From positions 106,849 to 170,848 of the forward strand of contig CAYJDM010000001.1 of NCBI GenBank assembly GCA_964368945.1: a DNA stretch of 64,000 nt, written 5' to 3'. Numbering within the stretch: the stretch's first letter is position 1; every line of letters begins with the position of its first letter. The notes under the pieces are model-generated. The model searched no databases. It was given only the letters and a program-made list of their open reading frames with translations, and was not told where the DNA came from. This document shows, in pieces, positions 8,212-64,000 of this stretch. This DNA is from an uncultured Candidatus Saccharibacteria bacterium (lineage in GTDB: Bacteria; Patescibacteriota; Minisyncoccia; Phycocordibacterales; CAIZLB01). The position numbers were made by a program, and so were the translations under genes.

Positions 8212-8364
8212 CTTTTTTGCTTTCGGTTCACGCGATATGCCGCGAGCGTTTTCGCCGCGGCGTATGCAATGTCTGCTCTTGCAAATAATTTTTTTATAAA
8301 AAACGATTCGTAAGAGCGGAAAAATGTGCAGTCCGCTTTTGATTTTAATGCGAATAGCGTTATT

Positions 8365-9690
8365 TTACAAGCCTAAATTTCCACTCGCTCTCAATTCCGC
8401 GAACTCTGGGCTATTCGGATCGAGCCCCGCCTTGCCATCGCGCATCTGGAAATAGGCGACAAGCCCGATCATCGTGGCATTGTCTGTGGACAAATCCTTT
8501 TCGGGCACGAGAAGCTTGATATCGAGCGATTCGCACAATGCTGCGAAGTTTTTCCTGATAAAAGAATTCGCTATCACGCCGCCTCCGATGATGAGGGTCT
8601 TTGCGGCATATTCCTCGATGGCTCGCTTCGTCTTATGCAAAAGGGTATCGACGACGGCCTGCTCGAATTCCGCGGCGAGTGATTCTTTCTGGACGTCGTC
8701 GAGGGGTTCGTTATTTTGTGCGGGCTCAGAGAGCTTGTCGCGTACGGCATAGAGCGCGGCGGTTTTTAATCCTGAAAAAGAGAAATTATAATCCTTCGTA
8801 TGAATCATGGGGCGAGGCAATGCGAATAGCTTGTCGCGCTCAGCTGATGCCGGATCTGAGTGCTCGGTTCGCCATTTTTCTGCAAGCTTGGAAATATGCG
8901 GTCCTCCAGGATATGGCAGGCTCATCAGGCGCGCCACTTTGTCATATGCCTCGCCGACTGCATCATCGACAGTCTGGCCGATCTTCTGGTATGAATGCCA
9001 AGAATCAATGGCTATGAGCTCGGTATGGCCGCCGGAAATGAGGAGGGCGAGGGCTGGGAAAAGTATCTGTGGCGAGCCGTCCAGAGCCTCAAGGGTGCCT
9101 TCAGGGCCGGCCTCATTATGTGTATTTTGCGCGAGGACGGATGCGATATGGCCTTCCATATGATTAATGGGGTAAAGAGGCTTGCCGAGGGCTGTAGCGA
9201 GTGCTTTCGCGCCTGATATGCCTACCCATAGCGCCGGCTCGAGGCCGGGGCCATAGGTGACGGCGATGGCGTCTATGGCAGACTGATTATCGGCGCCAGT
9301 CTTTATCTTGATGAAATCTTCATGCGGTATGTTTTGAAAAAAAGAAATCAGATCATCTCCGAGGTTGTCTTCGCGAGTGAGAAATGCGCGCATCTTTGCT
9401 GCTGTTTCTTCACCGAGGTTTTTATTGACATCATCGCTTGTATCGCCGGCGTTTTTGGCCTCAATGCCAAATGCTTCCTTAAGAGTTGCGGCAAGGAGCG
9501 GTGTGAAATTTTTATCGTGCTCGCGCTTGGCAAGGGCAGGGAAGACGCCGCCGAATTCTGCGTGTACATCGATCTGGGAATGCACTTTATGGCTGAGGGT
9601 TTTGCCATCGCGCAAGATCGAAAAAGCCGTCTCGTCGCAGCTGGTTTCGATCGCTAGTATTGTCGCTGATGTTTTTACTTGCTCGCTCAT
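8365..9690 (-). CDS. tsaD: tRNA N6-adenosine threonylcarbamoyltransferase TsaD (Kae1/Gcp family)
   Basis: ILAIETSCDETAF N-terminus; HAEFGGVFPALAKREH metal-binding region; 441 aa with an approximately 90-aa internal insertion relative to typical TsaD. Confidence 0.85.
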   Translation of the reverse strand: MSEQVKTSATILAIETSCDETAFSILRDGKTLSHKVHSQIDVHAEFGGVFPALAKREHDKNFTPLLAATLKEAFGIEAKNAGDTSDDVNKNLGEETAAKMRAFLTREDNLGDDLISFFQNIPHEDFIKIKTGADNQSAIDAIAVTYGPGLEPALWVGISGAKALATALGKPLYPINHMEGHIASVLAQNTHNEAGPEGTLEALDGSPQILFPALALLISGGHTELIAIDSWHSYQKIGQTVDDAVGEAYDKVARLMSLPYPGGPHISKLAEKWRTEHSDPASAERDKLFALPRPMIHTKDYNFSFSGLKTAALYAVRDKLSEPAQNNEPLDDVQKESLAAEFEQAVVDTLLHKTKRAIEEYAAKTLIIGGGVIANSFIRKNFAALCESLDIKLLVPEKDLSTDNATMIGLVAYFQMRDGKAGLDPNSPEFAELRASGNLGL

Positions 9691-9698
9691 ATTATTTG

Positions 9699-9962
9699 TT
9701 ATGTGCGGTTAGGGTTCAATTTTTCAGCTTTTTGTTTCGTATATTGATAAAAGATAAGTGGAAATTCGAATAAGGCCAAAAATAAGACAGCCCAAAATCC
9801 CAAAATTGGCAAGATTGCACCCCAATCATATGTGCGTTGATCTGGATAGCCGAATTCTCCGTTATTGTTCGTGAGCATCATATCTCTCCAGATCACTGAT
9901 ACCAAAAAGGCTATTATTCCCAAAACCAAGACGTGAGGAAGTATGGTCTTGAAGAGTTTCAT
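9699..9962 (-). CDS. small membrane protein, hypothetical
   Basis: 87 aa with two hydrophobic helices. Confidence 0.4.
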   Translation of the reverse strand: MKLFKTILPHVLVLGIIAFLVSVIWRDMMLTNNNGEFGYPDQRTYDWGAILPILGFWAVLFLALFEFPLIFYQYTKQKAEKLNPNRT

Positions 9963-9964
9963 CT

Positions 9965-10038
9965 GGTGACCCTACCGGGAGTCGAACCCGGCTTCTCGCC
10001 TTGAAAAGGCGATGTCCTAACCGATAGACGATAGGGCC
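9965..10038 (-). tRNA. tRNA-Glu (anticodon TTC)
   Basis: Reverse complement gives ggccctatcgtctatcggttaggacatcgccttTTCaaggcgag...ggttcgactcccggtagggtcacca, with CCA encoded. Confidence 0.85.
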
Positions 10039-10174
10039 AATTTCCTGGCCAATCCTGGGAGGGATTGACGGAATAGAGCCTATTATATGTATTTTTTAAT
10101 AAAAGAAAAGAGGCCGCCACATTGGTATGGGCGGCCTCGATATTGTTGGGTTTGCGTGATGGCAGCGAATTTGC

Positions 10175-10375
10175 CTAAGTCCGCTTCTTGCTTTTCCTTG
10201 GCCGTTTGGGGTTTTTTGGATTTTCAATGCCATCCTCTCCTTCCAGTTTTTGGGTCAGGGAAGGAAGGAGTCCGAGGCCGATGATCTCATAGAGAGAGGC
10301 CGAAGGCAGCCTTTTGGGTTTCGTATTGCGTGAGGCCATGGCGAATGAACGGGGTTGGGTGTTGGTTTGATACAA
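10175..10375 (-). CDS. small basic protein, hypothetical
   Basis: 66-aa ORF followed on the minus strand by a 9-bp perfect hairpin (gaggccgcc/ggcggcctc at 10120-10148) and a T-run. Confidence 0.3.
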   Translation of the reverse strand: MYQTNTQPRSFAMASRNTKPKRLPSASLYEIIGLGLLPSLTQKLEGEDGIENPKNPKRPRKSKKRT

Positions 10376-10488
10376 TGCTGTATTGCGTATATACTATAAC
10401 ATAACTTATAGATAATTGCAAGTATCAGAATACATATTCGAGGTTTTTGCTAGTGATGCGCAATCGTGAAGTCAATTAAAATGCAGAT

Positions 10489-11184
10489 GTGAAATCCAAA
10501 TTTGCGCATCTGAAAGATGAGGTGATTGCATTGCGTAAGCAAGGTTTTTCTATTACTGCGATAGAGAAGCAGTTTGGAATTGCCAGGTCGACTCTAAGCG
10601 GTTGGTTTCGCAAGGTTGAGCTAACAGATGAGCAAAAGGCTGCATTGGCGCCAAAAGGAAAAAATCGATGGTCCGCAGCGAGCAGGGAAAAAGCAACAGA
10701 GTGGCACAATGCTCAAAAACAAAAACGTTTGAAAGAAGCAAGGGATTCCGCTCATGAGCGGATCATGGATATGGGTTATGTTGATAAAAACATGGTGGAG
10801 ATTGCTGTTGCGATGCTTTATCTTGGCGAAGGATCAAAAGATGAAAAGACTTCTCTCGGAAACTCAAATCCTGCAATTCTTCAATTTTTCGTGATCTCGT
10901 TGATAAAGATTTACAATGTGCCCATATCAGATATAAAATGCGAACTTCATTTGCGATATGACCAAGACGAATACGCTGAGAAAAGGTATTGGTCTGGGGT
11001 ATTGAAAATTCCAATGTCTAATTTTTTGACCGCTTCGTTTGATAAAAGGACCATTGGAAGACCGACAAGGGAAGGGTACCACGGGGTGTGTATCGTTCGC
11101 TGCGGGCGCATTGCCATCATGCGCAAATTGGTATATCTTAGTAACATGTTTTGTGGCATGGCCATGGAATTATTGGGCGATTAG
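10489..11184 (+). CDS. HTH-domain protein with LAGLIDADG-like homing-endonuclease core
   Basis: N-terminal helix-turn-helix (SITAIEKQFGIARSTLSGWF); central MLYLGEGSKDEK resembles the LAGLIDADG dodecapeptide and is followed by a roughly 100-aa core; the stop codon overlaps the first 10 nt of tRNA-Val. Confidence 0.45.
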   Translation: MKSKFAHLKDEVIALRKQGFSITAIEKQFGIARSTLSGWFRKVELTDEQKAALAPKGKNRWSAASREKATEWHNAQKQKRLKEARDSAHERIMDMGYVDKNMVEIAVAMLYLGEGSKDEKTSLGNSNPAILQFFVISLIKIYNVPISDIKCELHLRYDQDEYAEKRYWSGVLKIPMSNFLTASFDKRTIGRPTREGYHGVCIVRCGRIAIMRKLVYLSNMFCGMAMELLGD

Positions 11185-11247
11185 CTCATTTGGTAGAGCG
11201 CGCCGTTGACGTCGGCGAGGTGACAGGGTCAGAACCTGTATTGCCCA
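11175..11247 (+). tRNA. tRNA-Val (anticodon GAC)
   Basis: gggcgattagctcatttggtagagcgcgccgttGACgtcggcgaggtgacagggtcagaacctgtattgccca; T-stem acagg/cctgt; no encoded CCA. Confidence 0.85.
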
Positions 11248-11325
11248 CAAATAAATATACAAAAAAGAAGGGCCGCGGCACTGATGCCGTGGCCCTTCTT
11301 TTTTTATCCAAAATCCTTAGCTGGA

Positions 11326-12297
11326 CTACCTCTTGCTCACATACACATAGATATCCTCCAATGCCTTCACCGCATCTCCAGCCGCGATATTGTTCTGATG
11401 ATAGAGGCCATCGGTGCAATCGCCGGCAGACCAGATTCCGGGCTGCGATGTTGATTGCGTCCGGTGGTCTACCTTGATCTTATTGTATTCGTCTCGCTCG
11501 ACGAGATTGCCGATGAAATCAGTGTTTGGCAAGAGGCCGATTTCCACGAACACTCCCGTTGTCGGCAATTCTTTGACTTCGCCCGTGACGGTATTTTTGA
11601 CCCTGATGCCAGATACGAATGTATCGCCCGTAACTTCCTCGATGATGGTGTCGGTGAGGGAATTGACGTTTTCTTTTGCCAAAATCTTCTCCACGGTCAC
11701 GGGATCGGCTCGGTATGATCCGCTTCGATTGATGATGGTGACAGATTTGCAATATGCCGCGAGCTGCGCTGCGCTTTCGAATGCGGCATTTCCGCCGCCC
11801 ACAACGAATACGTCCTGATCAGAGAACATCGGACCATCGCATGTCGCGCAATACGTTACGCCCTTATGCTCGAACTTGTCAGCGCCGATAGCCTCGAGCT
11901 TTCTGCGCTTGCTGCCCGTTGCGATGAGGATTGCATGAGAAAGGAATGTCTCGGGTTCGGTCGCGCCTTTCTTGGCTGCGAGGCTGACCTTGAAGACATG
12001 TCCATCGACTTCGCCTGCTGCATTTTCTACAGGAAGCTTCTCTACAGACTGTACCCATGATCCGGTCTTGATATCCACAATATCGGCAGCGTACGCTCGG
12101 AGATGCGCTTCGAGGCTTTTTGCGAGATCGTTGCCTGAAATCTTGATCGTGCCGATCCAGTTCTCGATGCCTTCGGATACGATGCTCTGTCCGCCGAAAG
12201 ATTCAGTAAGGAAAAGCGTTTTCAATTTTTTTCGGCTGGCATAGACTCCGGCGGCGACTCCGGCCGGTCCTCCTCCAATGATGATCAAATCGTACAT
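11326..12297 (-). CDS. trxB: thioredoxin-disulfide reductase
   Basis: N-terminal FAD motif IIGGGPAGVAAGVY; redox-active CATCDG; 323 aa. Confidence 0.85.
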   Translation of the reverse strand: MYDLIIIGGGPAGVAAGVYASRKKLKTLFLTESFGGQSIVSEGIENWIGTIKISGNDLAKSLEAHLRAYAADIVDIKTGSWVQSVEKLPVENAAGEVDGHVFKVSLAAKKGATEPETFLSHAILIATGSKRRKLEAIGADKFEHKGVTYCATCDGPMFSDQDVFVVGGGNAAFESAAQLAAYCKSVTIINRSGSYRADPVTVEKILAKENVNSLTDTIIEEVTGDTFVSGIRVKNTVTGEVKELPTTGVFVEIGLLPNTDFIGNLVERDEYNKIKVDHRTQSTSQPGIWSAGDCTDGLYHQNNIAAGDAVKALEDIYVYVSKR

Positions 12298-12473
12298 AAT
12301 TTACTCGATTCGCTGATACATTTCTCTCCATCTAGCAGACGACGATGCATATATTGATCGGGGTATGCCGGCTGCTGAGGCTGGAGAGTAAATGTACAGC
12401 GAATCTCAAAAGGTTAAAATTCACACTGGCTAATAGGATATAAGTATACCAAGCCTGTCAAACATAGACACCG

Positions 12474-13076
12474 TTGACTCATCCGGCTTATACTTGTCTA
12501 TATATGAAAAACAAGCCGGCTCAGAAAGCGCGATCAGGTAAGGAGGCAAAGAATGTCAAAAAGGCCATAAAAACAGTCAGGGTCAATGACCAGTATCAGA
12601 CTGGCTATTCCTATACGCTCGTTGAGCCAATGGGCAAAAATTTCGATCCTGAATTCAAGCCCCAGCTGACTCCGAAGCAGATGCTCGCTTTGGGGATATT
12701 CGGCGGTCTGTATTTTTCAGATCGCACGAAAGAGCTTCCGGCCGACTGGTATGCGAAAGCAAAGCTTCAGCATTTGGGCATGAAGGCTGATCCGAAGCTG
12801 AATTTGTTCAAGATCAATGCAAGCCAGCCGCTCTCTGTATGGAAGAAAAATGGCTGGATCTACAAGGATGATCCTCGAGGCTGGTTCCAATGGTATTGCC
12901 GGTATTATATGGGTCGGCGGATTCCTGCAGAAGACGCGCGGCAGATCAAGCGCTGGAAGGCCATCAATCGGCATATTGCTCAGGTTTCTTATGCTTGCCA
13001 GCCGGGAGATATGTTCTGCAGGCCGAAACAGAAGCAGGCCATCCTTCATTGGGCATACGACGCGAGAAGGCTCTGA
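12474..13076 (+). CDS. conserved hypothetical protein
   Basis: 200-aa ORF with a W/Y/R-rich segment (GWFQWYCRYYMGRR); no family assigned by eye. Confidence 0.45.
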   Translation: MTHPAYTCLYMKNKPAQKARSGKEAKNVKKAIKTVRVNDQYQTGYSYTLVEPMGKNFDPEFKPQLTPKQMLALGIFGGLYFSDRTKELPADWYAKAKLQHLGMKADPKLNLFKINASQPLSVWKKNGWIYKDDPRGWFQWYCRYYMGRRIPAEDARQIKRWKAINRHIAQVSYACQPGDMFCRPKQKQAILHWAYDARRL

Positions 13077-53818: not shown

Positions 53819-54250
53819 TTGATAGAATTACCGTATATGCACGCCTCTCTTACTGGTTTGAAAAAAATAGCAAAACTTGCTTTGATCTCGTTTGTGCTTT
53901 GGGTGATGCTCCTTGGGTTTTCTCAGTCTGCAATCGGGGCCGCTACGAATAATCAAATGGATAATTGTCCTTTTTCTGGACACTCCATGTCTATTTGCAA
54001 AACAAATCCCATAGAGCACATCGAAGAATGGCAGAGCATGTTCGCCTCAATTCCAGCAAAAGATGCAATCTCAATTCTGTTTGTACTTCTGGCATGTCTG
54101 GCAATAAGAAATGCAGTATCTCGATATAAATTTTCACTTGTGGAGATAGGGCGTCTCTATGCAAAGCATCTCTTCAGAAACGATTTCAATATATTGAATC
54201 CAACTAAGGAAGCTTTTTCCAGAGGAATTCTCAATCCTAAGCTTTTCTAA
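53819..54250 (+). CDS. hypothetical membrane protein
   Basis: 143 aa, two TM helices, extracytoplasmic Cys pair (CPFSGHSMSIC). Confidence 0.4.
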   Translation: MIELPYMHASLTGLKKIAKLALISFVLWVMLLGFSQSAIGAATNNQMDNCPFSGHSMSICKTNPIEHIEEWQSMFASIPAKDAISILFVLLACLAIRNAVSRYKFSLVEIGRLYAKHLFRNDFNILNPTKEAFSRGILNPKLF

Positions 54251-54323
54251 TCTCCACCCACTTAGCTGAATAATACGCTTATGGCGTATTTGCTTTATAT
54301 TTATTAATTTAAAGATACATACC

Positions 54324-55055
54324 ATGGAACCAAATACACAACCAATTAAAAAAAACACGCTGGCAATGCCAATTGCCATTGTTATCGCAGGGGCACTCAT
54401 TGCTAGCGCGGTGATATACCGTGGCGGCAGTGTGCCTACGGCTGCGGACATGGCAAATCAGCCGCAACAGCGGGCGGCACAGCAAACAGGTGATCTTGAA
54501 CAAATGACACCAGTTACGTCTAAAGACCATATCCGAGGTGATGTGAATGCGCCGGTAAAAATAGTGGAGTATTCAGATACCGAATGTCCATTCTGCAAGG
54601 TGTTCCATACCAATATGAAAGAAATAATGAATACCTATGGCAAAGACGGAAAAGTAGCATGGGTATACCGACACTTTCCGATCGATCAGCGTCATCCTAA
54701 GGCACGAAAAGAGGCTGTCGCTTTTGAATGTGCGAATGAGTTGGGAGGAAACGACAAGTTCTGGGAATATGCCGATCGCCTCTACGAAGTCACTCCGGCA
54801 AACAATGGACTTGACCTCGCAGAGTTACCAAAGATTGCGGAGCATGTCGGCTTAGACAAGGCAAAATTCAACACCTGTCTCTCAAGTACGAAATACGATA
54901 AGCACATCCAGGATGAAGTCGAGAATGCACAGGCAACCGGTGGCAACGGAACGCCATGGAGCATTGTGGTCGGCAAAGACGGGAAGAAGTATCCATTGTC
55001 GGGAGCGCAACCAATATCGGCCATTAAACAGTTGATTGATCTTGCGTCAAAATAA
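54324..55055 (+). CDS. membrane-anchored DsbA-like thiol:disulfide oxidoreductase
   Basis: N-terminal TM; thioredoxin-fold active site VEYSDTECPFCKVFH; second conserved Cys region. Confidence 0.7.
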   Translation: MEPNTQPIKKNTLAMPIAIVIAGALIASAVIYRGGSVPTAADMANQPQQRAAQQTGDLEQMTPVTSKDHIRGDVNAPVKIVEYSDTECPFCKVFHTNMKEIMNTYGKDGKVAWVYRHFPIDQRHPKARKEAVAFECANELGGNDKFWEYADRLYEVTPANNGLDLAELPKIAEHVGLDKAKFNTCLSSTKYDKHIQDEVENAQATGGNGTPWSIVVGKDGKKYPLSGAQPISAIKQLIDLASK

Positions 55056-55057
55056 CT

Positions 55058-55603
55058 ATGATTCCTAATGCCTTACAAAAAGTATTCCGGAAACCAGGCC
55101 TTGTGGTTCTTGCACTTCTCGTAAGTGCGTCGGTGTTTGTGTTTGCCGTCTGGCTTCCAAATATCCGACTGGTTGCGGGCATAGTCAGCTCACCTGATGT
55201 ACCTTTTGTAAGCAAGATTCAATTGCCCCTCAGTCTCCTGGGTTCTATTGGAACAAATTTCACACCACTCTCCGCCACTTACACGATTGTGATCGCCATT
55301 CTCTTTGGAGTGTACATTGCAATGATCACTTACTTCCTGAAGCGTCGGATCAAAGAGGTTGGAAAAAGTGGAGTGGCAACTGGATTCCTGGGTATCGCAA
55401 GCGGAGTGTTGGGGGTTGGATGTGCCGCCTGCGGTTCATTTCTTCTCACAAGCTTAACGCTTGTCGGTGCTGGAGGAGTATTGACGTTTCTGCCACTAGG
55501 AGGCAGTGAGTTCGGAATCATTGGAGCTATCCTGCTTGCCGTGGCAGTCTACATGACTGCAAAAAAGATTGTTGATCCCCAAGTATGCAAAGTCGAAAAT
55601 TAA
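55058..55603 (+). CDS. polytopic membrane protein with intramembrane CxxC
   Basis: 181 aa, about 4 TM helices; GVGCAACGSF lies within a hydrophobic segment. Confidence 0.4.
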   Translation: MIPNALQKVFRKPGLVVLALLVSASVFVFAVWLPNIRLVAGIVSSPDVPFVSKIQLPLSLLGSIGTNFTPLSATYTIVIAILFGVYIAMITYFLKRRIKEVGKSGVATGFLGIASGVLGVGCAACGSFLLTSLTLVGAGGVLTFLPLGGSEFGIIGAILLAVAVYMTAKKIVDPQVCKVEN

Positions 55604-55607
55604 ATTT

Positions 55608-56051
55608 ATGAAAAAATTAATCAATAAAATATCATTCCAAACCCTCCATTATGCGATCCTGCTTCAGGCAGGAATCGCTATGGCGGGAAGTCTGTTCTTC
55701 AGCGAGGTCATGAATCTGCCGCCATGCGTGTTGTGCTGGTATCAGCGCATCGCCATGTACCCGATAGTGATCCTTGCCGCAATCGGCATCATTCGAAACG
55801 ACAGAAAGACATGCGTCTCGGTCCTCGCGCTTGCTCTGCCAGGCCTCGCGATATCGATCTACCACAACCTGCTTTATTGGAAGATACTTCCCGAAAGCAT
55901 TGCGCCCTGCATGCTCGGGGTATCATGCACCACCAAGTTCTTTGAATGGTTCGGCTTCATTACCATCCCACTCATGGCGCTTGTGGCGTTCATTATTATT
56001 AACGTGCTAGCATTTATTAGCTTAAAGAAAAATACATATGAAAAATCTTAA
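55608..56051 (+). CDS. disulfide bond formation protein B (BdbC/DsbB-like)
   Basis: LFFSEVMNLPPCVLCWYQRIAMYP matches the BdbC/DsbB N-terminal Cys pair region; four TM helices; second Cys pair CMLGVSC. Confidence 0.65.
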   Translation: MKKLINKISFQTLHYAILLQAGIAMAGSLFFSEVMNLPPCVLCWYQRIAMYPIVILAAIGIIRNDRKTCVSVLALALPGLAISIYHNLLYWKILPESIAPCMLGVSCTTKFFEWFGFITIPLMALVAFIIINVLAFISLKKNTYEKS

Positions 56052-56694
56052 AATCATTATTGGAATTGTGGTCGCTATCGTAATCGTCTTTCTTCTTGCC
56101 AAGGGAGGGTATAAAAAGACAGAAGAAAAAGTAGAGACTACAAACACCAGTCAGGCTTCAGCACTTGAAATCAAAGCAAACGACTGGGTCTCTGGAACAA
56201 GCACCGCAAAGGTCACTCTCGTTGAATATCTCGACTTCGAATGCGAGGCCTGCGGAGCATTTTATCCGATAACGACAAGGCTCAAGGAAGAATATAAGGA
56301 TGATATGCGACTGGTCATCAGGTATTTCCCATTGTCGGGGCATAAGAATTCTCGAACAGCAGCGCATGCAGTGGAAGCGGCCGGAAAGCAGGGAAAGTTC
56401 TGGGAGATGTACAATATTCTCTTTACGAAACAGTCTGAGTGGAGTGAAAAGCCGGTCGCAAACCAGGATCAGTTTGAAAAGTATGCGGTTGAAGCGGGCG
56501 TTATGGATATCGAGCAGTGGAAAAAGGATGTCGTGAGCGATGAGGTAAAAAAGAGAGTTGATGACAGCTACAAAGAGGCGGTCAGTCTCAATCTCCAAGG
56601 CACTCCGTCATTCTTCCTTGATGGAAAAAAGATAGAAACTCCGAGAGGATACGAATCGTTCAAGCTTCTTATCGAAAAGGCGAAAAATAATTAA
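56038..56694 (+). CDS. membrane-anchored DsbA/BdbD-like thiol:disulfide oxidoreductase
   Basis: N-terminal TM; VEYLDFECEACGAFYP CxxC active site; thioredoxin-fold length. Confidence 0.7.
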   Translation: MKNLKIIIGIVVAIVIVFLLAKGGYKKTEEKVETTNTSQASALEIKANDWVSGTSTAKVTLVEYLDFECEACGAFYPITTRLKEEYKDDMRLVIRYFPLSGHKNSRTAAHAVEAAGKQGKFWEMYNILFTKQSEWSEKPVANQDQFEKYAVEAGVMDIEQWKKDVVSDEVKKRVDDSYKEAVSLNLQGTPSFFLDGKKIETPRGYESFKLLIEKAKNN

Positions 56695-56707
56695 TCAATA
56701 CACATCC

Positions 56708-57334
56708 ATGGAACATACAACATCAGAAAACAAAGAAATCTTAAAATCTAAGAAGCCAAAGCCTCTTGTAATCGCAATTGGAGTTGCAGCAGCCCTCATC
56801 ATCGTGGCCTTATTCTTTGCCAAAGGACTCTTCGTTGCTGCAACGGTAAACGGTAGTTCGATCAGCCGTCTTTCAGTTATCAAAGAGCTGGAGAAACAGG
56901 GTGGGAAACAGGCTCTCGAAGCGATCATCGACCAAAAGCTCATCGAGACTGAACTGAATAAGAAAGGAATAAGCGCATCAAAAGAGGAAGTCGATGTGGA
57001 GATCGAAAAGATAAGGACTCAAGTCGCCGCTCAGGGGGGAACTCTTGAAATGGCACTCGCACAACAAGGACTTACAGAAGAGAAGCTAAGAGAGCAAATC
57101 ACCACTCAGAAGAAGCTTGAGAAGCTTCTGGCAGACAAAGTTACAGTCAGTGAGGCAGAAATAGATGCGTATATCAAAGATTCAAAGGCCGCTCTGCCAA
57201 AAAGTGTAAAGATGGAGGATGTTAGAATGCAGGTCGGTGCGCAGCTTAGGCAGCAGAAATTCCAATCCGAAGCGCAGCAGTGGGTTTCTGAACTGACGGC
57301 AAATGCTAAGATAAAGTACTATGTCAACTACTAG
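56708..57334 (+). CDS. membrane-anchored SurA-N/PrsA-like chaperone-domain protein
   Basis: N-terminal TM then a helical domain resembling the SurA N-terminal chaperone module (ATVNGSSISRLSVIKELEKQ...); no PPIase domain. Confidence 0.4.
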   Translation: MEHTTSENKEILKSKKPKPLVIAIGVAAALIIVALFFAKGLFVAATVNGSSISRLSVIKELEKQGGKQALEAIIDQKLIETELNKKGISASKEEVDVEIEKIRTQVAAQGGTLEMALAQQGLTEEKLREQITTQKKLEKLLADKVTVSEAEIDAYIKDSKAALPKSVKMEDVRMQVGAQLRQQKFQSEAQQWVSELTANAKIKYYVNY

Positions 57335-57389
57335 AAACAAAAGAATTCTCATCCAATGGATAGATAAAGAACTTGCTGAATAAAGGCCC

Positions 57390-57863
57390 ATGCCCACATC
57401 AATCATCGTCTTCTGTGCACAATACCTTCCGTTTGTCATCCTTGCAGCAGCGGCAGTGTTCTTCGTAAGGCTCGATATTGTGAGGAAAAAATCCATGTTT
57501 GCGTTGTCATTGGTCTCATCTGTATTGGCTTTGGCAATGGATAAAACTCTGAATCTCCTGATCATCAGCCCTCGGCCCTTTGTGGTCAAGGGGGTAGATC
57601 CGCTTATCGCCCATGCGGCTGATAATGGATTTCCTTCTGAACACGCTCTCTTTGTATTCCTTATCGCAGGTGCTGTTTTCGCATATGACAAGAAGCTTGG
57701 AATTATCTTGGGAATAATAGGTGCCTTTGTCGGCACTGCGCGGGTAGTCGCAGACGTGCATCATCCGATCGATATAATCGGCGGATTTCTGATCGCCGCC
57801 ATTGCCCTTTTGATAGGGGAGTCCGTTCTCAAATGTCGAAAAGCAAAAGAGATTAATGTATAA
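57390..57863 (+). CDS. PAP2-superfamily phosphatase
   Basis: The three PAP2 motifs: ISPRPF (KX6RP-like), PSEHA (PSGH), ARVVADVHHPID (SRX5HX3D). Confidence 0.65.
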   Translation: MPTSIIVFCAQYLPFVILAAAAVFFVRLDIVRKKSMFALSLVSSVLALAMDKTLNLLIISPRPFVVKGVDPLIAHAADNGFPSEHALFVFLIAGAVFAYDKKLGIILGIIGAFVGTARVVADVHHPIDIIGGFLIAAIALLIGESVLKCRKAKEINV

Positions 57864-57914
57864 TAAAATCAAAAGGAGTTTGTGGATTTTCTTGGTATAA
57901 TGTGATATGTATAA

Positions 57915-58466
57915 ATGAAAATCAATCCGCTAACAATTTCCATCGCTCTTGTCTTCACCATCCTTGTCCCTTCAATAGGGTATGTCTCGTTCGGACCGTG
58001 GCCAGCTCTCCTGTTTCTGATAGGGTACTTGGGCGGATTCATATTATTGCTGATACTGCCAACAAGAGCACCTTTCTCAACGATCAGATCCGTGTATTGG
58101 ATCACGTTTGGATTGTTCATCCTGCATCGGGTTGAGGAAAAGGTATCGGGATTCTTTGCCACATTGTCGGAGATGACCGGAGTTCCGATTCCTGATGTAG
58201 CCTCTATACCGGTAATCCTACTCCTTATGCTATCTGTGGGCGCATGGATTTTAGGTCCTGTGTTGTATTCCAAAGGAAATGCTTTTGGTCATTACCTAGT
58301 CTGGACATTCTTTGCCTCAATGGGAATAACGGAGCTTGCGCACTTTGTCCTGCCACTATTTACTGGAGCGTCATACGGGTATTTCCCAGGGATGCTTAGT
58401 GTATTTGTCCTCGCGCCTGTGGCGTGGTGGGGTATGAGAAGAATTGTAAGTAAGCACTCTTTGTAG
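57915..58466 (+). CDS. HXXEE-domain membrane protein
   Basis: Polytopic membrane protein with HRVEE at the start of a helix. Confidence 0.45.
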   Translation: MKINPLTISIALVFTILVPSIGYVSFGPWPALLFLIGYLGGFILLLILPTRAPFSTIRSVYWITFGLFILHRVEEKVSGFFATLSEMTGVPIPDVASIPVILLLMLSVGAWILGPVLYSKGNAFGHYLVWTFFASMGITELAHFVLPLFTGASYGYFPGMLSVFVLAPVAWWGMRRIVSKHSL

Positions 58467-58482
58467 GATAATTATATAATCT

Positions 58483-58818
58483 ATGGAACCTCTTATAATT
58501 GCATTTACAATATCTTGCCTGATACAGGTATTGCATTCTGTGGAAGAAATATCAACTCGCTTTGAAAAGAGGTGGCCGCTCTGGAGAATGAGAAGATCTA
58601 CGTTTGTGATTTTCGAAATCGCTTTCACTGCCTTGTTTCTTTCCGCACTGTTCTTCAGCCCCTCGTTTGAGGTTATGTTCGCCAAGGCTTTTATCGCACT
58701 CATGTTTGCAAACGGTATCTGGCATATCTTCTGGGCAGGAAGCGAAAAGAGATATGTTCCAGGACTCATTACTGCCCCTCTGCATGTATTAAACTTTATT
58801 ATATATTTTCTCAACTAA
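58483..58818 (+). CDS. HXXEE-domain membrane protein (short paralog)
   Basis: 111 aa with HSVEE motif and three TM helices. Confidence 0.4.
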   Translation: MEPLIIAFTISCLIQVLHSVEEISTRFEKRWPLWRMRRSTFVIFEIAFTALFLSALFFSPSFEVMFAKAFIALMFANGIWHIFWAGSEKRYVPGLITAPLHVLNFIIYFLN

Positions 58819-58822
58819 ATCT

Positions 58823-59698
58823 ATGCACGATCACAACCATCCGTCAGGAGAAAAGAATATTAAGACTGCTCTTGCTTTGAATATCTGTTTTACAGTGATC
58901 GAGTTTGTCGGCGGGTTTTTCACGAATAGCTTGGCTATTCTGTCCGATGCGCTTCACGATTTGGGAGACAGCTTGGTGCTGGGGCTCGCTCTGTTTGCCG
59001 AAAAGAAATCTAAGAAAGGTGCCGACTCCAAAAGAACATTCGGATACGCCAGGTTGTCGGTATTGTCTGCGACAGTGTCCGGGGCGGTATTGATCGGGGG
59101 ATCGTTATTCATTCTCTCTGAGGCCATTCCTCGATTATTGCACCCAGAGAGTGTTAATGCAGGAGGAATGATGATTCTTGCGGTCGTAGGCATCATTTTC
59201 AATGCAATAGGCGCATGGAGATTGAAGAAAGGGGAGAGCGTCAACGAGAAGGTTTTGTCGTGGCACTTGATTGAAGACGTGTTGGGGTGGATAGCCGTAT
59301 TGATAGGCGGGGCCTTGATTTACCTATTTGATTTGCCTATCCTGGATCCCATAATTACTATCTGCTTTACGCTTTTCATACTTTGGGGAGTGATCAGATC
59401 TATGAAGGAGGTGGTGAATCTGCTCCTGCAAGGCGTGCCTCCAAAGACTGACCTTGATGCGCTCAAAGCTGATATCAAAAGTATTGACGGTGTTCTGGGC
59501 CTGCATGATCTGCATGTATGGTCTCTTGATGGAAAATCGAATGTTTTGACTGCTCACGTTGTGGTTCTTCCGCAGGGGATCGATGCCGCCCACGATATAC
59601 AACGACAAATAAAGCAAAAACTTCATGATGATCATGAGATTGAGCATTCCACTATTGAGCTTGAAACCGAAAAAACTTGTACCGGAAATGATTGTTAG
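58823..59698 (+). CDS. cation diffusion facilitator family transporter
   Basis: N-terminal His-rich MHDHNHP; CDF signature SLAILSDALHDLGDS; six TM helices plus a cytoplasmic C-terminal domain. Confidence 0.85.
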   Translation: MHDHNHPSGEKNIKTALALNICFTVIEFVGGFFTNSLAILSDALHDLGDSLVLGLALFAEKKSKKGADSKRTFGYARLSVLSATVSGAVLIGGSLFILSEAIPRLLHPESVNAGGMMILAVVGIIFNAIGAWRLKKGESVNEKVLSWHLIEDVLGWIAVLIGGALIYLFDLPILDPIITICFTLFILWGVIRSMKEVVNLLLQGVPPKTDLDALKADIKSIDGVLGLHDLHVWSLDGKSNVLTAHVVVLPQGIDAAHDIQRQIKQKLHDDHEIEHSTIELETEKTCTGNDC

Positions 59699-59703
59699 GT
59701 TTG

Positions 59704-61026
59704 CTAATTGACGAAGATCTCCTTTCCTTTGATCGTCACCTTGTTTTTCAGGCAGCCTAGCAATTCTCTTTTCTCTATATCCGTACCAGATTTAAAGATG
59801 TACTTAGTGTAGTTCCGTATATCAATATCCTTAACCTCTACCGAATCTTTGATATCCAATAGCGCATGGTTGAATTTCTTCATTCTCTCGACTTCTAATT
59901 TTATCTTTTGATTAATGGATGTCTCGTCAAGATTGATTTTGTCCATAAGCTTTATAAATTGCTGTATCAAGTCAGGCTCGTTTATATACTCCCGCTTACA
60001 TTCTGGGTTGCGTGATCTGCTGCAGGCATAGTACACGTGGCGGTTAATTGATCCATCTTTCTGTTTCTTGAATTTTTCTTCCGCGGATATTCCAGAACCG
60101 CATAATCCGCAGTTCATGAGCTTGGTGAATGCGAATTCTTTGGGTTCTCCTGTGCGAAGGATCTGGCTTTTGATCTGAGCTTGAACCAATTCAAAAAGTT
60201 CTTTTGAAATCAATGGTTCGTGCTTTCCCGTATACCAGTTTCCGCTTTTTGCGGGATATTCAAATACTCCGTAATAAAAATGATTTTCCAGTAATGTATA
60301 GATATTCCCCAAACTCATATGCTTGTGTCCGCAAACAGTTCTGAAATTAAGATCAAATTTGAGCCAGTGAAAAATCTTTCTACCTGTCCATTTCTCGTAC
60401 GCAACCTTTTCAAATATGCTCTTAATGATATGTCCTCGCTCAGGATCAACGTATACCTGGCATTTCCTATCGATCCTTTTTTCGCTTAGATATCCGGTCG
60501 GCGCTCTACCTGGCCACAGCCCCATCTCGCATCTTGTGCGCATGCCTCGTTTTACGTTTATGCTCTTGTTGTCGTTCTCTAGCTTGGCTTGTGAACAGAG
60601 AATCATCAATAAGAACTTTTCATTCGGTGAATTTCTAAATTGTTGTCCGTATGTTCGTATTTCTGATAGCAGCCCTTGATCCATCAAATCTACGACAGAT
60701 CCAAGATCACCTGCATTTCTAGAAAGTCTGTCTGGCGCCCAAGTCAAGATTCCGTTGAATCTTTGTCTTCGTATATCTTCCAATAATTCTTTATAGACTG
60801 GTCTCTGTCCAGAATCCTTTGCAGAATGCGATTCTCTGCGAATATCAATAATCTCTAATCCGTCTCGTTCAGCTATTTGTAGCATTTCTTTTACTTGAGA
60901 CTCAATCGACAAAGCTTGTTTCTCATCTGACTCGGTACTCTTGCGGGCATATAAGCAATACTTAGTTTTTGCTTGTGGCACTATCTCCGCCATCCGTATT
61001 TGGGCATTTGTGCCTAGTTGTTGCAT
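59704..61026 (-). CDS. large serine recombinase (integrase)
   Basis: Resolvase catalytic domain YARKSTESDEKQALSIESQ with the Ser nucleophile; recombinase domain; zinc-ribbon CGLCGS...YYACSRSRNPEC; 440 aa. Confidence 0.8.
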   Translation of the reverse strand: MQQLGTNAQIRMAEIVPQAKTKYCLYARKSTESDEKQALSIESQVKEMLQIAERDGLEIIDIRRESHSAKDSGQRPVYKELLEDIRRQRFNGILTWAPDRLSRNAGDLGSVVDLMDQGLLSEIRTYGQQFRNSPNEKFLLMILCSQAKLENDNKSINVKRGMRTRCEMGLWPGRAPTGYLSEKRIDRKCQVYVDPERGHIIKSIFEKVAYEKWTGRKIFHWLKFDLNFRTVCGHKHMSLGNIYTLLENHFYYGVFEYPAKSGNWYTGKHEPLISKELFELVQAQIKSQILRTGEPKEFAFTKLMNCGLCGSGISAEEKFKKQKDGSINRHVYYACSRSRNPECKREYINEPDLIQQFIKLMDKINLDETSINQKIKLEVERMKKFNHALLDIKDSVEVKDIDIRNYTKYIFKSGTDIEKRELLGCLKNKVTIKGKEIFVN

Positions 61027-61389
61027 ATATTAATTAATGACAGACCACCCAACCTTGCATAGCTATGCAGAACAACCGAAACGTAGTGTGGTCGCGTCAG
61101 CTCTTAGCAAGAAGGTCTTTCAGCGATAGGATATGGATTAATAGCCCAGATTGGGCTATTATGAGCATTAACAACTTAATATTGCTGACCTAACCCTATG
61201 GCCTCAAACCCTAGGCATGGTCAAAATCCGCTAAAGTGTAAAAACCTCCTCGTCAGGAGTCACTTTAGCGGTCGTATCTGGAAACGGGTACGGGTTGAGC
61301 CGAAAGGTTCAATCGCAACTGGCGGGGAGATTTTTGCTATCTCACTTTTGCCATTTATCATAAAAGCAAAACAAAACCGCTAAAGTTTT

Positions 61390-62112
61390 ATGAATAATAC
61401 AAATACTTCTCCGGACGGAGAAGGTAAAAATAGCTTTAAGCAATTCTTTGCAAAGCATCCATTTTGGAGTTGGACAATCGCAGGATTCCTCATCAGTCGG
61501 ATTCCAAAATTAGAATGGGTATTACCAATATTTTTGGTAATAGGTTTATATCAGTTTCTCAAACACAAAGGTAATCGAAAGAAACAAAATGTTTCTGATC
61601 GAAAGGAAGCAGTGACCAAGGGTATGGAGGAATTCGTTGCTCAGATAAAACAACAGAAAGCTCTGACTCCAATCTCATCATCACTTGTTTTAGGGCCAAA
61701 GGAGCAGGCATTCTTAGAAGAAGAGACTGCATTGCAGGAAACAAGATCAGTTCGCCAATTCCGTAGCACGGGAGTTCGGGTTCGATTGATGAAAGGATTA
61801 TCGGTTGGTCAGTCTGGAGGCAGGGCAGAGAGTCATAAAGAATGGAGAATCTTGGATACAGGAAAACTTATCCTTACGAATAAGAAGTTGGTGTTTGACG
61901 GAGGGAAAGAAGATCGAACAATCCCTTTGGATAAGATACTTACGATCTCACCAATGCTCGACGCGATAGAGGTATCCTCATCTTCAAGAAGCGGATCAAT
62001 GGTATTTCCAGTTAAGAATCCGTTCATTTGGGCAACAACCATTCGCATCCTAAGCGCAGTCGAGGATCCTTTGAATTTGGGAGATCTCGATCTGAACGTA
62101 CAGGTCAAATAA
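61390..62112 (+). CDS. membrane protein with bacterial PH-like (bPH/YdbT-like) domain
   Basis: N-terminal TM helices followed by WRILDTGKLILTNKKLVFDGGKEDRTIPLDKILTI, a bPH_2-like pattern; lies between the integrase and terminase genes on the opposite strand. Confidence 0.4.
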   Translation: MNNTNTSPDGEGKNSFKQFFAKHPFWSWTIAGFLISRIPKLEWVLPIFLVIGLYQFLKHKGNRKKQNVSDRKEAVTKGMEEFVAQIKQQKALTPISSSLVLGPKEQAFLEEETALQETRSVRQFRSTGVRVRLMKGLSVGQSGGRAESHKEWRILDTGKLILTNKKLVFDGGKEDRTIPLDKILTISPMLDAIEVSSSSRSGSMVFPVKNPFIWATTIRILSAVEDPLNLGDLDLNVQVK

Positions 62113-63574
62113 AGTAAACCCGAGGAGGATTGGGAGGGTGCTCCGTGGCATCTAACACCAGGTTGGAAAACGCATCAGCGAGGTCATCGTGTTTCTCGAC
62201 CCCGAAGTGTACGATCTGGTTTATCAGCTCTTCACATCCTTCCCGTGGAAATTTCACTCGACCGCTTTTGATGAGATTGGCAGTGAGTACCAGACGGCTT
62301 CGCTTGTCCTGATTTCCTGGCCTTGTCGATCTGACTTTCGGAATGCCTTCGCTTATCAATTGCTGGGGCAATGCTTTCTGGTATGCGACATCTTCTATTA
62401 CGAAGGTTGGATACATTCGATCCGATTCTGCATACGATTTGTTCAGTATCTTGCATGTCTCGACAGTCTCGGGAAAAGTCATCCTCTTGTTGATAATCTT
62501 CGGCAGGATGTAAATATCGTAACTCGATTCGGTCTCAAACAATAGACCGGGAACCATGGCAGTGTAGTCAGCAGTGGCACTCTTGGAAATCGCCAGATCT
62601 ATTCCGATACGAGTTTCCGTATGAGAAACATATCTTCCGTATATGGGTATCTTCGCAGGAATCACATCGTAATATTGGATCCATTCTCGGTGAATGGCCT
62701 GCTCCTCATCCGATACGATGTTGAGCAGATATTCTCTCTGCCAAGCAAACTCATTTCCAGCCTTTTTCTTTTCCTTCTCGACTTCGGCCATGGATGGATA
62801 TTTTCCAAGCCAAAGAATCTGTCCGTTCTCAATCAACGGATATTGCTTGAATATTCCACCTATGCGATCCTTTTCAATATCTTCCTTTATTCGCATGAGT
62901 AAGGAATCTTCGTGCAAAAGGTTTCCAATAACAACGAGGCGGGTGTTTATGTCTCCTGTGGGAATGACTTCGCTTGTCAGCCACTGATAGGTCTTGTTTC
63001 GACCTTCTCTTGTCTTCGTGGAAGCGATATCCTCTACGTCGTCGCAGATGATGAGATCGGGCCGATGCTGATTGTGCCGAAGCCCTCGGATACTTTGTTC
63101 TGAAGATGCCGCAGTGATTCGAGCGTTTGAATTTGAGAACACAAGGGAAGAAGATCCCCATTCATCGGATTCCTCCCTGAACGGCCCGAGATCGTTCTTG
63201 AGCACAGCATTGTCTTCAAGCTCTCTTCGCAGGTTCATCATGTGCTGTTTGGCTTGGCTCTGAGTCTGGCAGAGGATCAGAACGAATTTCTTCTGCGGCT
63301 TCCCAAGAATTGCCCAGATAGGGTAGGAGGTGGTGAGGATTGTGGATTTCCCGCATCCTCGGAATGCCACGATGAAGAAGTTGCCGAGCTCCTCATTCTC
63401 GGTCAAGTTGAATATCTCATTGTGAAAATCCGCTGTTGCATATCTCACATAGTGGGCGAAATACAGATGGAAGAAATACCAATGGCTTTCCTTCGTTATC
63501 GCGGCTCTAATCTTTCGGTCCTGAATCATCTGATCCACCAGTTCCTGTGGAATTATCTTCGGTTTGTTTTCCAT
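62105..63574 (-). CDS. phage terminase large subunit
   Basis: ATPase Walker A AFRGCGKST; Walker B LIICDDVED; C-terminal RNaseH-like nuclease region IGIDLA...D; 489 aa. Confidence 0.7.
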   Translation of the reverse strand: MENKPKIIPQELVDQMIQDRKIRAAITKESHWYFFHLYFAHYVRYATADFHNEIFNLTENEELGNFFIVAFRGCGKSTILTTSYPIWAILGKPQKKFVLILCQTQSQAKQHMMNLRRELEDNAVLKNDLGPFREESDEWGSSSLVFSNSNARITAASSEQSIRGLRHNQHRPDLIICDDVEDIASTKTREGRNKTYQWLTSEVIPTGDINTRLVVIGNLLHEDSLLMRIKEDIEKDRIGGIFKQYPLIENGQILWLGKYPSMAEVEKEKKKAGNEFAWQREYLLNIVSDEEQAIHREWIQYYDVIPAKIPIYGRYVSHTETRIGIDLAISKSATADYTAMVPGLLFETESSYDIYILPKIINKRMTFPETVETCKILNKSYAESDRMYPTFVIEDVAYQKALPQQLISEGIPKVRSTRPGNQDKRSRLVLTANLIKSGRVKFPREGCEELINQIVHFGVEKHDDLADAFSNLVLDATEHPPNPPRVYFI

Positions 63575-63947
63575 GATGTTTTGTAGATGCCAATTTTAAT
63601 GCTTCACGAACAATCGACTCTTGCTCGGGTGATAATGCGTCAGAGACAGTCTTGGTTGTGACTTCGATTCGCTCTCTGAATTTCGGATTTCGATGACGTA
63701 GCCAGAAGCTGACGGCTGACCAGTTCTTTTCCTTGATCATCGTGAGGAGCTGGCTTTCGCTCATATCGTTTACAAGATCCTCGCCCTCCTTTAGTGCGAC
63801 ATCCATTTCTGCTGCGAATGACCCGTCTTCCTTTCTCCATCTGTATACGGAATTTCTCGATAGCCCTGACTTCTCGCAGGCGACCAAGACGATAGGGATC
63901 TTTCTGAGCTGATCAAGAAATTCCTTTTGCAGTTTATTTTTCTTCAT
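63507..63947 (-). CDS. phage terminase small subunit-like HTH protein
   Basis: 146 aa, N-terminal HTH (VACEKSGLSRNSVYRWRK), directly upstream of and overlapping the terminase large-subunit gene. Confidence 0.45.
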   Translation of the reverse strand: MKKNKLQKEFLDQLRKIPIVLVACEKSGLSRNSVYRWRKEDGSFAAEMDVALKEGEDLVNDMSESQLLTMIKEKNWSAVSFWLRHRNPKFRERIEVTTKTVSDALSPEQESIVREALKLASTKHHGKQTEDNSTGTGGSDDSGPKD

Positions 63948-64000
63948 GGCGGATTATTCTCGCTTTTATTCCAGTAATCTTTTCAAATCGTCTTATCGCA

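Follow-up and report, generated by a model that had tools for sequence, protein, structure and literature searches.

Phage satellites such as the phage-inducible chromosomal islands (PICI), the capsid-forming PICI (cf-PICI), and the P4-like elements are families with hotspots of defence genes (PMC10085698). Among structured RNAs, the LOOT motif (Rfam RF03000) is a metagenome-derived family from the alignments of Weinberg and Breaker (PMC7779021), and it is one of many orphan structured RNAs which are known from metagenomes alone. In the searchable literature, LOOT appeared only in catalogue and method mentions, without function or genomic context (the supplement of the discovery paper lay outside this search), and the searchable literature on prophages or satellites with a terminase in bacteria of the candidate phyla radiation (CPR) gave no description of the element considered here. 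This element occupies the end, from 59.7 to 64.0 kb, of a 64,000-nucleotide stretch of DNA (the window) from an uncultured Candidatus Saccharibacteria bacterium.

An earlier note on this DNA had described the edge of an integrated phage-like element, perhaps a prophage, with repressor operators in a control region. The genes claimed in it, namely a serine integrase, a membrane protein with a pleckstrin homology (PH)-like fold, and the large (TerL) and small (TerS) terminase subunits, are all present where it had placed them. We consider it fairly likely, taking the DNA element and its RNA jointly, that a compact integrative element, derived from the packaging module of a phage, reaches into the window with its integrase end at 59.7-64.0 kb, and that the "control region" comprises the promoter and 5' leader of a cargo cassette, in which a LOOT RNA is followed by ~75 nt of leader. 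The identity of the LOOT RNA and of the window genes themselves is hardly in doubt. For comparisons, TerL relatives were collected from GTDB contigs with one genome per species (223 relatives, of which 80 with 58-76% identity were kept), and together with 8 IMG/VR contigs they form a set of 88 TerL loci in which open reading frame (ORF) calls were clustered and representatives annotated. A TerL-independent sample was obtained from viral and metagenome collections using a LOOT sequence pattern, with 125 further copies confirmed and a total of 141 LOOT-selected loci.

The LOOT RNA and its alternative pairings

The "control region" contains a full-length LOOT RNA, which cmscan scored at 82.8 bits against a gathering threshold of 46.4 (E 4.3e-14, model positions 1-121 of 121). 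Scanning of the whole window with Rfam at gathering thresholds gave nine matches, that is, eight tRNAs and LOOT, and no rRNA. Our own covariance model, built from 21 copies, scores the window LOOT at 95.4 bits; its structure was specified by hand, as RNAalifold on a plain MAFFT alignment recovered P1 and P3 only. On 74 sequences, P3 is 96% paired and P2 76%, and both P1a and P2 covary. In the sister element L230, a 6-kb contig with the same order of integrase, LOOT, PH-fold gene, TerL, TerS, and methylase as in the window, the identity of 96% over the whole leader exceeds the 86% of the element, and all the LOOT substitutions are compensatory and located in P1a and P4. Little or no variation was seen in the CCUAA(A/C)C...(C/U)AUGG loop and in the GAAA loop of P3. 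In their pattern, these loops resemble an 11-nt receptor and a GNRA tetraloop, which would make their conservation a matter of tertiary contact and not of a ligand pocket.

The sequence CCGCTAAAGT, which had been noted in two direct copies and one inverted copy, is indeed found at three places in the 64 kb and no more, 61228 (+), 61262 (-), and 61377 (+) (0.07 copies expected by chance; none of 100 shuffles reached three copies). Repressor operators, however, are not the best reading of these repeats, because two of them are the arms of LOOT P2 and the third is a start-codon-proximal copy which is able to pair with the same 3' arm. In the following, the 5' arm, apical segment, and 3' arm of P2 are designated D, A, and E, the 3' tail beyond the Rfam match is B, and the two downstream segments are C and F (Table 1).

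The apical segment and the tail appear to form a long-range helix with strong covariation. The energy of the A:B duplex averages -24.8 kcal/mol within the same locus and -15.4 kcal/mol across loci. The 12-bp core of this helix is 93.6% paired on the 74 sequences, a percentage inflated by the derivation of the pair columns from the same sequences, against ~40% in slid controls, and changes on both sides, the counts of which are not so inflated, were found in 11 of the 12 pairs. U-G dominates three of the A:B pairs (53-65 of the 74 sequences), and this prevalence of wobbles fits an RNA of this strand. The local hairpin which Rfam draws at the P2 apex was tried as well and rejected, as it is 50-60% paired in either register and no better than shuffles. 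The tail has a second partner in C, and the B:C duplex is also locus-specific (-18.0 kcal/mol for own-locus and -13.2 kcal/mol for cross-locus pairs). A comparable pattern was found for E and F. In 18 of the 38 TerL-linked copies, 9 nt or more of the copy's own leader are an exact Watson-Crick complement to E, against 1 of 1406 cross-locus pairs, and this stretch always ends 1-9 nt before the ATG. In the LOOT-selected sample, such a complement occurs in 12/113 copies against 35/12656 cross-locus pairs, with its end 2-6 nt before an ATG in 11 of the 12; the control rates are thus 0.07% and 0.28%.

On the basis of these pairings, two alternative folds of the leader can be proposed. In Fold I, P2 (D:E) would be closed and B would pair with C, leaving the start region of the PH-fold gene free. 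In Fold II, B would pair with the apical A, and the freed E would pair with F, by which translation initiation would be masked. Since A fills the P2 loop with essentially no linker, the ~19-bp A:B helix and a closed P2 could hardly coexist. The downstream copies are ordered C and then F, an order required by the nested helices B:C and E:F and not expected from tandem duplication. In agreement with two competing states, the folds are nearly iso-energetic (-71.2 kcal/mol for forced D:E and -67.5 kcal/mol for forced E:F in the window; a difference of +2.3 +/- 4.5 kcal/mol over 20 loci). The switch might be triggered by co-transcriptional folding, by a protein, or by a small ligand. From these structure predictions, the chance that the LOOT leader of the window acts as a cis-acting translational gate on the PH-fold gene appears to us slightly better than even. 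A same-strand 5' domain with an alternative pairing to an expression platform, as in riboswitch-like leaders, is found in the window and not in most copies.

Two wider generalizations were tried and abandoned. General start-site masking by LOOT was rejected because own-locus and cross-locus energies are equal in the copies without F; as E:F is limited to a sub-class, masking of the start site is not the universal function of LOOT. A split into an F-type translational class and a terminator-type transcriptional class was also rejected, with terminator-like sites after 3/30 F-type and 19/114 other copies.

We then consider the genomic context of LOOT. Our covariance model detected LOOT in 36 of the 88 TerL loci, with 39 copies in all; these do not share the strand of TerL, and they are typically 30-80 nt 5' of the first cargo gene and often divergent from the integrase with a spacer of 130-166 nt. 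None of the 26 loci in which TerL and the integrase are adjacent has a LOOT, compared with 19 of the 27 loci with cargo between them. The methyltransferase/TerS/TerL/integrase module was recognised in only ~20 of the 141 LOOT-selected loci, many of which are on short contigs, and similarity to serine recombinases was found somewhere in 47 of the 141. The 3' neighbour in this sample is on the same strand in 84 of 98 cases (within 120 nt on that strand in 64) and usually 27-60 nt away, and 79 of the 98 neighbours are singleton families. The commonest neighbour of LOOT is a family of ~530 aa which lies upstream, usually on the opposite strand. An N-terminal hydrophobic 18-mer is present in 95 of 141 ORFs downstream of LOOT (67%) against 23% of other ORFs. 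The same-strand placement together with the hydrophobic N-termini is indicative that LOOT is a conserved leader of hypervariable, mostly membrane-anchored genes. Two elements, L001 (12970-13115 and 15944-16072) and L012 (12123-12265 and 20364-20496), have two LOOT copies each, one per cargo unit, which suggests stackable cassettes.

Rfam classes LOOT as "Gene; sRNA", and the leader has to be weighed against a free-standing, trans-acting small RNA (sRNA) with its own promoter that would end at the B:C hairpin, with F either as a target encoded in cis, as for a type I antitoxin, or as an irrelevant copy, in which case the cargo gene would have a separate transcript. A U-rich stretch follows the B:C hairpin of the window, terminator-like hairpins occur within 110 nt after 22 of 144 LOOT copies (~15%), and the downstream genes are mutually unrelated, unlike typical riboswitch regulons. 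The hydrophobic N-terminal segments of 67% of the downstream ORFs would also suit an sRNA of this type, as the toxins of type I toxin-antitoxin systems are typically small membrane proteins. Against it, most copies have no recognisable terminator, LOOT is found only where cargo is present, and it almost always shares the strand of the next gene, usually at the short distances given above. Moreover, E is buried in the folded P2 and F equals the other P2 arm, which is a signature of intramolecular alternative pairing. An sRNA is, in our view, unlikely, and a cis-acting leader is the preferred reading of the window LOOT.

The terminase-bearing element and its relatives

The assignment of the integrase passes tests with hidden Markov models (HMMs). 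All three domains of large serine recombinases, i.e., the catalytic resolvase (Pfam Resolvase, PF00239, 5.3e-19), the recombinase (Recombinase, PF07508, 2.5e-11), and the zinc-ribbon domain (Zn_ribbon_recom, PF13408, 5.5e-08), match above cut-off, in addition to phrog_95 integrase (6.8e-58), and the translation carries a YARKSTESD motif with the catalytic serine near the N-terminus. The integrase cluster was found in 57 of the 88 TerL loci, mostly 3' of TerL and on the same strand.

The earlier note had placed the edge of an integrated phage-derived element at this integrase, and the comparison with L230 agrees with it on the integrase side. Homology by blastn covers 59748-64000 with 86% DNA identity, the similarity of the integrase protein extends to its stop codon, and the genes beyond the edge are unrelated (czcD in the window; DsbD_2-like and cupredoxin-like genes in L230). 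In the pairwise alignment, TTAGG(T/C)TTG(C/G)T is common to both junctions (window 59695-59705, L230:760-775), and it is a possible candidate for the att core region. The crossover core of large serine integrases is 2 bp, and attL/attR direct repeats, the search for which had been proposed as a check, are therefore not expected here. We also observed that both elements adjoin the 3' ends of metal-related genes (czcD; DsbD_2 and cupredoxin-like). As no tRNA of the window adjoins the element, it is not integrated at a tRNA. Differences between the codons of the window and L230 are mostly synonymous (synonymous:non-synonymous 201:69 in the integrase, 105:21 in TerL, 49:9 in the PH-fold gene, and 40:11 in TerS), which is indicative that these genes are under purifying selection and that the element is not a decaying remnant.

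The terminase assignment likewise passes the HMM test. TerL matches phrog_38 (4.7e-79) across residues 16-483 and Pfam Terminase_6C above cut-off (24.9 bits against 22.6), with Terminase_6N below it (18.9 bits against 22); its translation has the Walker A motif GCGKST, and its closest cultured phages are Mu-like with ~25% identity. TerS matches phrog_4044 (2e-10) and phrog_309 (2.5e-06), with a sub-threshold match to Pfam Sf6_terminase. It overlaps the start of TerL by 68 nt on the same strand, and its cluster lies directly 5' of TerL in 65 of the 88 loci. The gene which is cut by the window edge is the 3' end of a methylase, as its C-terminal 21 residues (...AIRRFEKITGIKARIIRHEEK*) match the C-terminus of the L230 gene, which itself matches Pfam N6_N4_Mtase (2.9e-26). 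The methylase cluster (C0; phrog_498, 1.3e-80) is present in 80 of the 88 TerL loci.

Almost all of the 80 kept TerL loci are from metagenome-assembled genomes (MAGs) titled as Patescibacteria, including Saccharibacteria, Paceibacterota, Gracilibacteria, and Komeili-, Falkow-, Moranii-, Taylor-, and Kaiserbacteria. About 15 of the 80 are from MAGs titled Gammaproteobacteria, Flavobacteriaceae, Dysgonamonadaceae, Omnitrophota, Methanoregula, or Nanoarchaeia (among them L009, L018, L023, L025, L036, L047, L064, L066, L072, and L075), and these may represent mis-binning, mislabelling, or a real spread beyond the CPR. The conserved module consists of an S24 LexA/CI-like repressor on the opposite strand, a small gene (C5), a ParB-N/N6_N4 methyltransferase, TerS, TerL, a variable slot, and the serine integrase, in this order, and the integrase follows TerL either directly or after cargo. 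The cargo of the variable slot includes, for example, a tRNA_anti-like/superinfection exclusion (Sie)-like protein, a membrane SNase, a reverse transcriptase, and restriction-type genes. In L029, L033, L034, L062, L081, L082, and others, the genes between TerL and the integrase include a reverse transcriptase (phrog_1423, 1.4e-107) accompanied by small partners, and this could be a defence system similar to retrons or to defence-associated reverse transcriptases (DRT). On the 5' side of the repressor, the relatives carry ThsB-TIR, ThsA-Macro, SMODS with AGS_C and Cap15, a caspase-like protease, an M78 peptidase, and Dda-like helicases, and further out lie housekeeping genes (class I aldolase, PPDK, CTP synthase, adenylosuccinate synthetase, TsaD, FtsX/ABC transporter). 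Some variant arrangements were also noticed. Four LOOT-selected loci (L095, L096, L144, and L158) have the order methylase-TerS-cargo-LOOT-integrase with a gap too short for TerL, and these TerS-only variants look more like classical satellites than the TerL-bearing form does. L047:1-8845 carries tandem modules with two TerL genes (TerL, c35, methyltransferase, methyltransferase, TerL) and no integrase between them.

The prophage reading is doubtful. In the relatives, the unit measures ~6 kb plus cargo and is flanked by defence and housekeeping genes, with no capsid, portal, or tail genes found. No capsid, portal, tail, or tape-measure family recurs within ~8-10 kb on either side, as judged from 131 representative upstream proteins with PHROG/Pfam and targeted scans, and among these 131 there were two weak "tail protein" matches only; recurrence was checked on the 25 most frequent PHROG or Pfam families. 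In L036, the module (6700-12885) is bounded by an FtsX/ABC-transporter pair that abuts the regulator, which leaves a core of ~6 kb. The earlier note had named a lack of capsid, portal, or tail genes downstream, together with a recombinase from a non-phage integrative element, as a result that would count against a prophage; the first part of this is what the relatives present, and the far side of the window's own element lies outside the window. The conserved unit is probably a compact island of ~6 kb plus cargo without structural genes, as extrapolated from the relatives to the window. The relatives have the broad features of PICI-like elements (a small integrative element with an integrase and a regulator and no virion structural genes), and most likely, we infer, the element behaves like a phage satellite or a defence-carrying island and not like a self-sufficient prophage.

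A complete temperate CPR prophage, with structural genes beyond 64000 and with the repeats as operators of a phage repressor controlling the integrase and the moron, has several arguments on its side. TerL, TerS, the ParB-methylase, and the serine integrase are typical phage genes, a CI/LexA-like repressor belongs to the module in the relatives, IMG/VR has related contigs that are classed as viral, and the window ends inside the methylase gene, with the region beyond unseen. In addition, there is overlap between the palindrome at 61139-61161 and a -10-like hexamer, and other loci have inverted repeats of a similar kind. On the other hand, the ~8-10 kb 5' of the methylase in the relatives hold housekeeping genes and no recurrent structural family, the transporter pair of L036 abuts the regulator, and on the other side the integrase directly 3' of TerL leaves no room for structural genes. 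The operators fare no better, since two of the three repeats are the helix arms of a curated RNA family and all three change together from locus to locus, which no single DNA-binding protein would track. We regard such a prophage as quite improbable and retain the compact island. We give next to no weight to the repeats and LOOT being DNA-level recombination sites or operators for the exchange of cargo cassettes by the serine recombinase: the region does adjoin the recombinase, the cargo between TerL and LOOT is hypervariable with both borders conserved, and cassette exchange would require sites, but homologous recombination between the conserved flanks could account for it, the G-U wobbles that dominate several A:B and P3 positions would be A-C mismatches on the other strand, the GNRA-type loops and the tetraloop-receptor-like internal loop are RNA features, and the order of C and F suits nested RNA helices and not tandem duplication.

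Several points weigh against a compact island with an RNA gate, in addition to the inflated pairing percentage of A:B mentioned above. The energies of the two folds come from a nested model, which ignores pseudoknots and tertiary contacts. The exclusion between full D:E and full A:B is a matter of geometric reasoning alone. E:F is a feature of a sub-class, comprising 47% of the TerL-linked and 11% of the LOOT-selected copies, and in the copies without F, LOOT and the start region are no more complementary within a locus than across loci (-10.5 own-locus against -10.3 cross-locus). The sRNA type in Rfam and the ~15% of copies with terminator-like hairpins make a stand-alone RNA product possible. 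With respect to the element, no replication gene (primase or replicase) was recognised in the module, in which C5, c7, c15, and c17 have no Pfam or PHROG match, the structural proteins of CPR phages could be too divergent for PHROGs or Pfam, and the compactness of this particular element is extrapolated from relatives, with its far side outside the window.

Gene layout and signals at the end of the window

The coordinates of genes, RNA segments, and signals are given in Table 1. Small corrections to the earlier layout were needed. The czcD-like gene and the integrase are adjacent as described, with a gap of 5 nt where 6 nt had been given; the intergenic region measures 363 bp and not 364 bp; and both terminase genes are on the minus strand as claimed, except that they do not run to the end of the window, as the last 66 nt (63934-63999) belong to the C-terminus of the methyltransferase. 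PADLOC gave no match for the integrase, the PH-fold protein, TerL, or TerS. Outside the element, G+C falls from ~0.49 to ~0.43 at ~54000, some 5.7 kb ahead of the element edge, and the stretch of ~54000-59700 holds two paralogous genes of ~220-240 aa which are found beside the integrase in L010 too. This low-G+C stretch may be a shared integration neighbourhood or an older island.

Table 1. Positions of genes, LOOT segments, and signals at the end of the window.
Feature	Position	Strand	Evidence or remark
czcD-like gene	58823-59698	+	Pfam Cation_efflux 2.9e-41
Approximate element/host junction, one att site of the integrase	59695-59745	.	L230 homology fades; TTAGGTTTGCT spans both stop codons
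Large serine recombinase (integrase), 440 aa	59704-61026	-	Pfam and PHROG
Perfect 12-nt palindrome GCATAGCTATGC	61059-61070	.	33 nt 5' of integrase start codon; identical in L230
GCGATAGGAT, -10-like motif GCGATAnnAT	61124-61133	+	Conserved in L230 bar one base
Inverted repeat TAATAGCCCA-gat-TGGGCTATTA	61139-61161	+	10-nt arms, 100% complementary; 3' arm with TATTAT (61157-61162)
ACAACTTAATA, copy of the ACAAYTKAATA motif preceding LOOT P1	61171-61181	+	
LOOT RNA (RF03000)	61187-61314	+	cmscan
LOOT P1/P1a, with CCUAAC...CAUGG internal loop	61187-61222	+	
LOOT P2 5' arm, D	61228-61238	+	
LOOT P2 apical segment, A	61239-61260	+	
LOOT P2 3' arm, E	61261-61271	+	
LOOT P3	61273-61292	+	GAAA loop 61281-61284
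LOOT P4	61293-61314	+	
3' tail, B (CUGGCGGGGAGAUUUUUG)	61319-61336	+	Beyond Rfam match; complementary to A and alternatively C
Segment C (UAUCUCAC...GCCA)	61337-61353	+	Hairpin with B in minimum free energy fold of 221-nt leader
Segment F, third CCGCTAAAGT	61377-61386	+	Exact copy of P2 5' arm; ends 3 nt before ATG at 61390
Cargo gene, 240-aa PH-fold protein	61390-62112	+	ORF call, predicted fold
TerL, 489 aa	62105-63574	-	phrog_38 4.7e-79
TerS, 146 aa	63507-63947	-	phrog_4044 2e-10
3' end of ParB-N/N6_N4 DNA methyltransferase gene, cut by window edge	63934-64000	-	L230 comparison

Both short palindromes pointed out earlier were found, namely gcatagctatgc at 61059-61070 and the inverted repeat TAATAGCCCA/TGGGCTATTA at 61139-61161. 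The first is a candidate operator or promoter element of the integrase gene. Inverted repeats like the second (tagcccagattgggcta in the earlier note) occur at -55 to -25 of other LOOT loci, where arms of 7 nt or longer are present in 21% of copies and in 8.5% of shuffles. The palindrome of the window could serve as an operator that overlaps the promoter of LOOT, or it could add a further hairpin to the 5' end of the transcript. By eye, GCGATAnnAT recurs ~60-75 nt upstream of LOOT in many relatives; as the -10 of a second promoter, it could place the inverted repeat inside the transcript as an extra hairpin. TANNNT hexamers upstream of LOOT peak at -34 to -28, and an ACAAYTDAAT pattern is present within 40 nt upstream in 70 of 155 LOOT copies. 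A generic sigma-70 scan gave no convincing promoter upstream of LOOT; the two promoter-like sites in the region are no more than in shuffles, and neither is upstream of LOOT.

The 240-aa cargo protein had been described as having a bacterial PH (bPH)-like domain, which stands at the level of the predicted fold and fails at the level of profiles. AlphaFold2 on 12 sequences gave a mean pLDDT of 77, with values >90 for residues ~107-223, and a model in which two short hydrophobic helices at the N-terminus are followed by a long helix, a beta-sandwich, and a C-terminal helix. The top matches of this model in the PDB by Foldseek are all PH-like (Lam6, GRK2, Dbs, ASAP1), with a probability of ~1 and E-values of only 1e-3 to 1e-2, and the matches in BFVD include phage proteins (3e-11 and 3e-6) and a "Bacterial PH domain protein" (1e-3). 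The protein has no match to Pfam bPH or PHROG, and the sole Pfam match, CheF-arch (7e-4), is below cut-off with 19.8 bits against 25. Only 11 homologues were found among 5.8 billion proteins; the one in L230 is 96% identical, and among the 88 TerL loci the protein is common to the window and L020 alone. Its moron-like position is supported, as the gene lies in the slot of hypervariable, often Sie-like or nuclease, cargo in the relatives, and the company of this slot suggests a possible role in superinfection exclusion or abortive infection.

Significance and comparison with known systems

To our knowledge, CPR bacteria are mostly devoid of CRISPR, and CPR phage biology is almost uncharacterised. 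The element family is found in hundreds of species-level Patescibacteria genomes with Thoeris-like, cyclic oligonucleotide-based antiphage signalling system (CBASS)-like, nuclease, reverse transcriptase, and Sie-like cargo, and the compact terminase and integrase island is a candidate vehicle for the exchange of defence genes in the CPR radiation, and possibly a phage satellite. The locus and its relatives give LOOT a genomic context, as the leader of a variable cargo cassette beside the serine integrase of CPR mobile elements, and an extended structure with a strongly co-varying long-range helix. They also offer a proposed mechanism that can be tested by mutation, in which the 3' arm of P2 would choose between its normal partner and the start-codon copy. 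Tentatively, and with some doubt on our part, LOOT might be the sensor and core of a so far unrecognised class of bistable 5' leaders that gate the hypervariable membrane and defence cargo of terminase-bearing, structural-gene-free Patescibacteria elements, which would be candidate CPR satellites. If this is true, neither the RNA mechanism nor the element family would have been described in the literature before.

In comparison with PICI, cf-PICI, and P4-like satellites, the element family is alike in being a small integrative element with an integrase, a repressor, and the packaging gene TerS, with relatives that lack tail and capsid genes, and in having variable slots with anti-phage genes (here Thoeris-, CBASS-, and Sie-like genes, nucleases, and reverse transcriptases). 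It differs from them in a full TerL besides TerS, a ParB-methylase, a large serine integrase, and Patescibacteria hosts; no primase/replicase module or capsid-remodelling genes were recognised in it. The cargo protein shares with bPH proteins of the YdbS/YdbT type the two N-terminal hydrophobic helices, the PH-like beta-sandwich, and the C-terminal helix, and it is set apart by its long helical linker, the tiny size of its family (11 homologues), and the lack of a Pfam bPH match.

The RNA of the window agrees with the LOOT motif RF03000 in its four hairpins and conserved nucleotides over the full length. The Rfam consensus, as seen by cmscan, stops before the 3' tail and draws the P2 apex as a local hairpin, whereas here the apex pairs with the tail, and the sub-class has a third copy of the P2 arm that abuts the start codon of the next gene. 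Translational riboswitches, such as the add adenine riboswitch, differ from it in that LOOT has no known ligand, its downstream genes are heterogeneous, its invariant nucleotides look like a structural contact, and the start-masking copy is present in only a subset of LOOT copies; shared with them are a structured domain 5' of a same-strand gene, one strand (E) with two exclusive partners, one of which overlaps the initiation region, and states of similar energy. Lastly, in the mRNAs of the hok family, the tac/fbi/ucb/dcb elements with their coupled covariations set up alternative folds by which the translation of a membrane toxin is controlled. These mRNAs have an antisense RNA partner and a toxic product, for neither of which there is evidence here, and LOOT has in turn a compact, conserved, multi-helix core. 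In common with the hok mRNAs, the LOOT leader shows triple locus-specific covariation, competing helices, and a small membrane-anchored product encoded on a mobile element.

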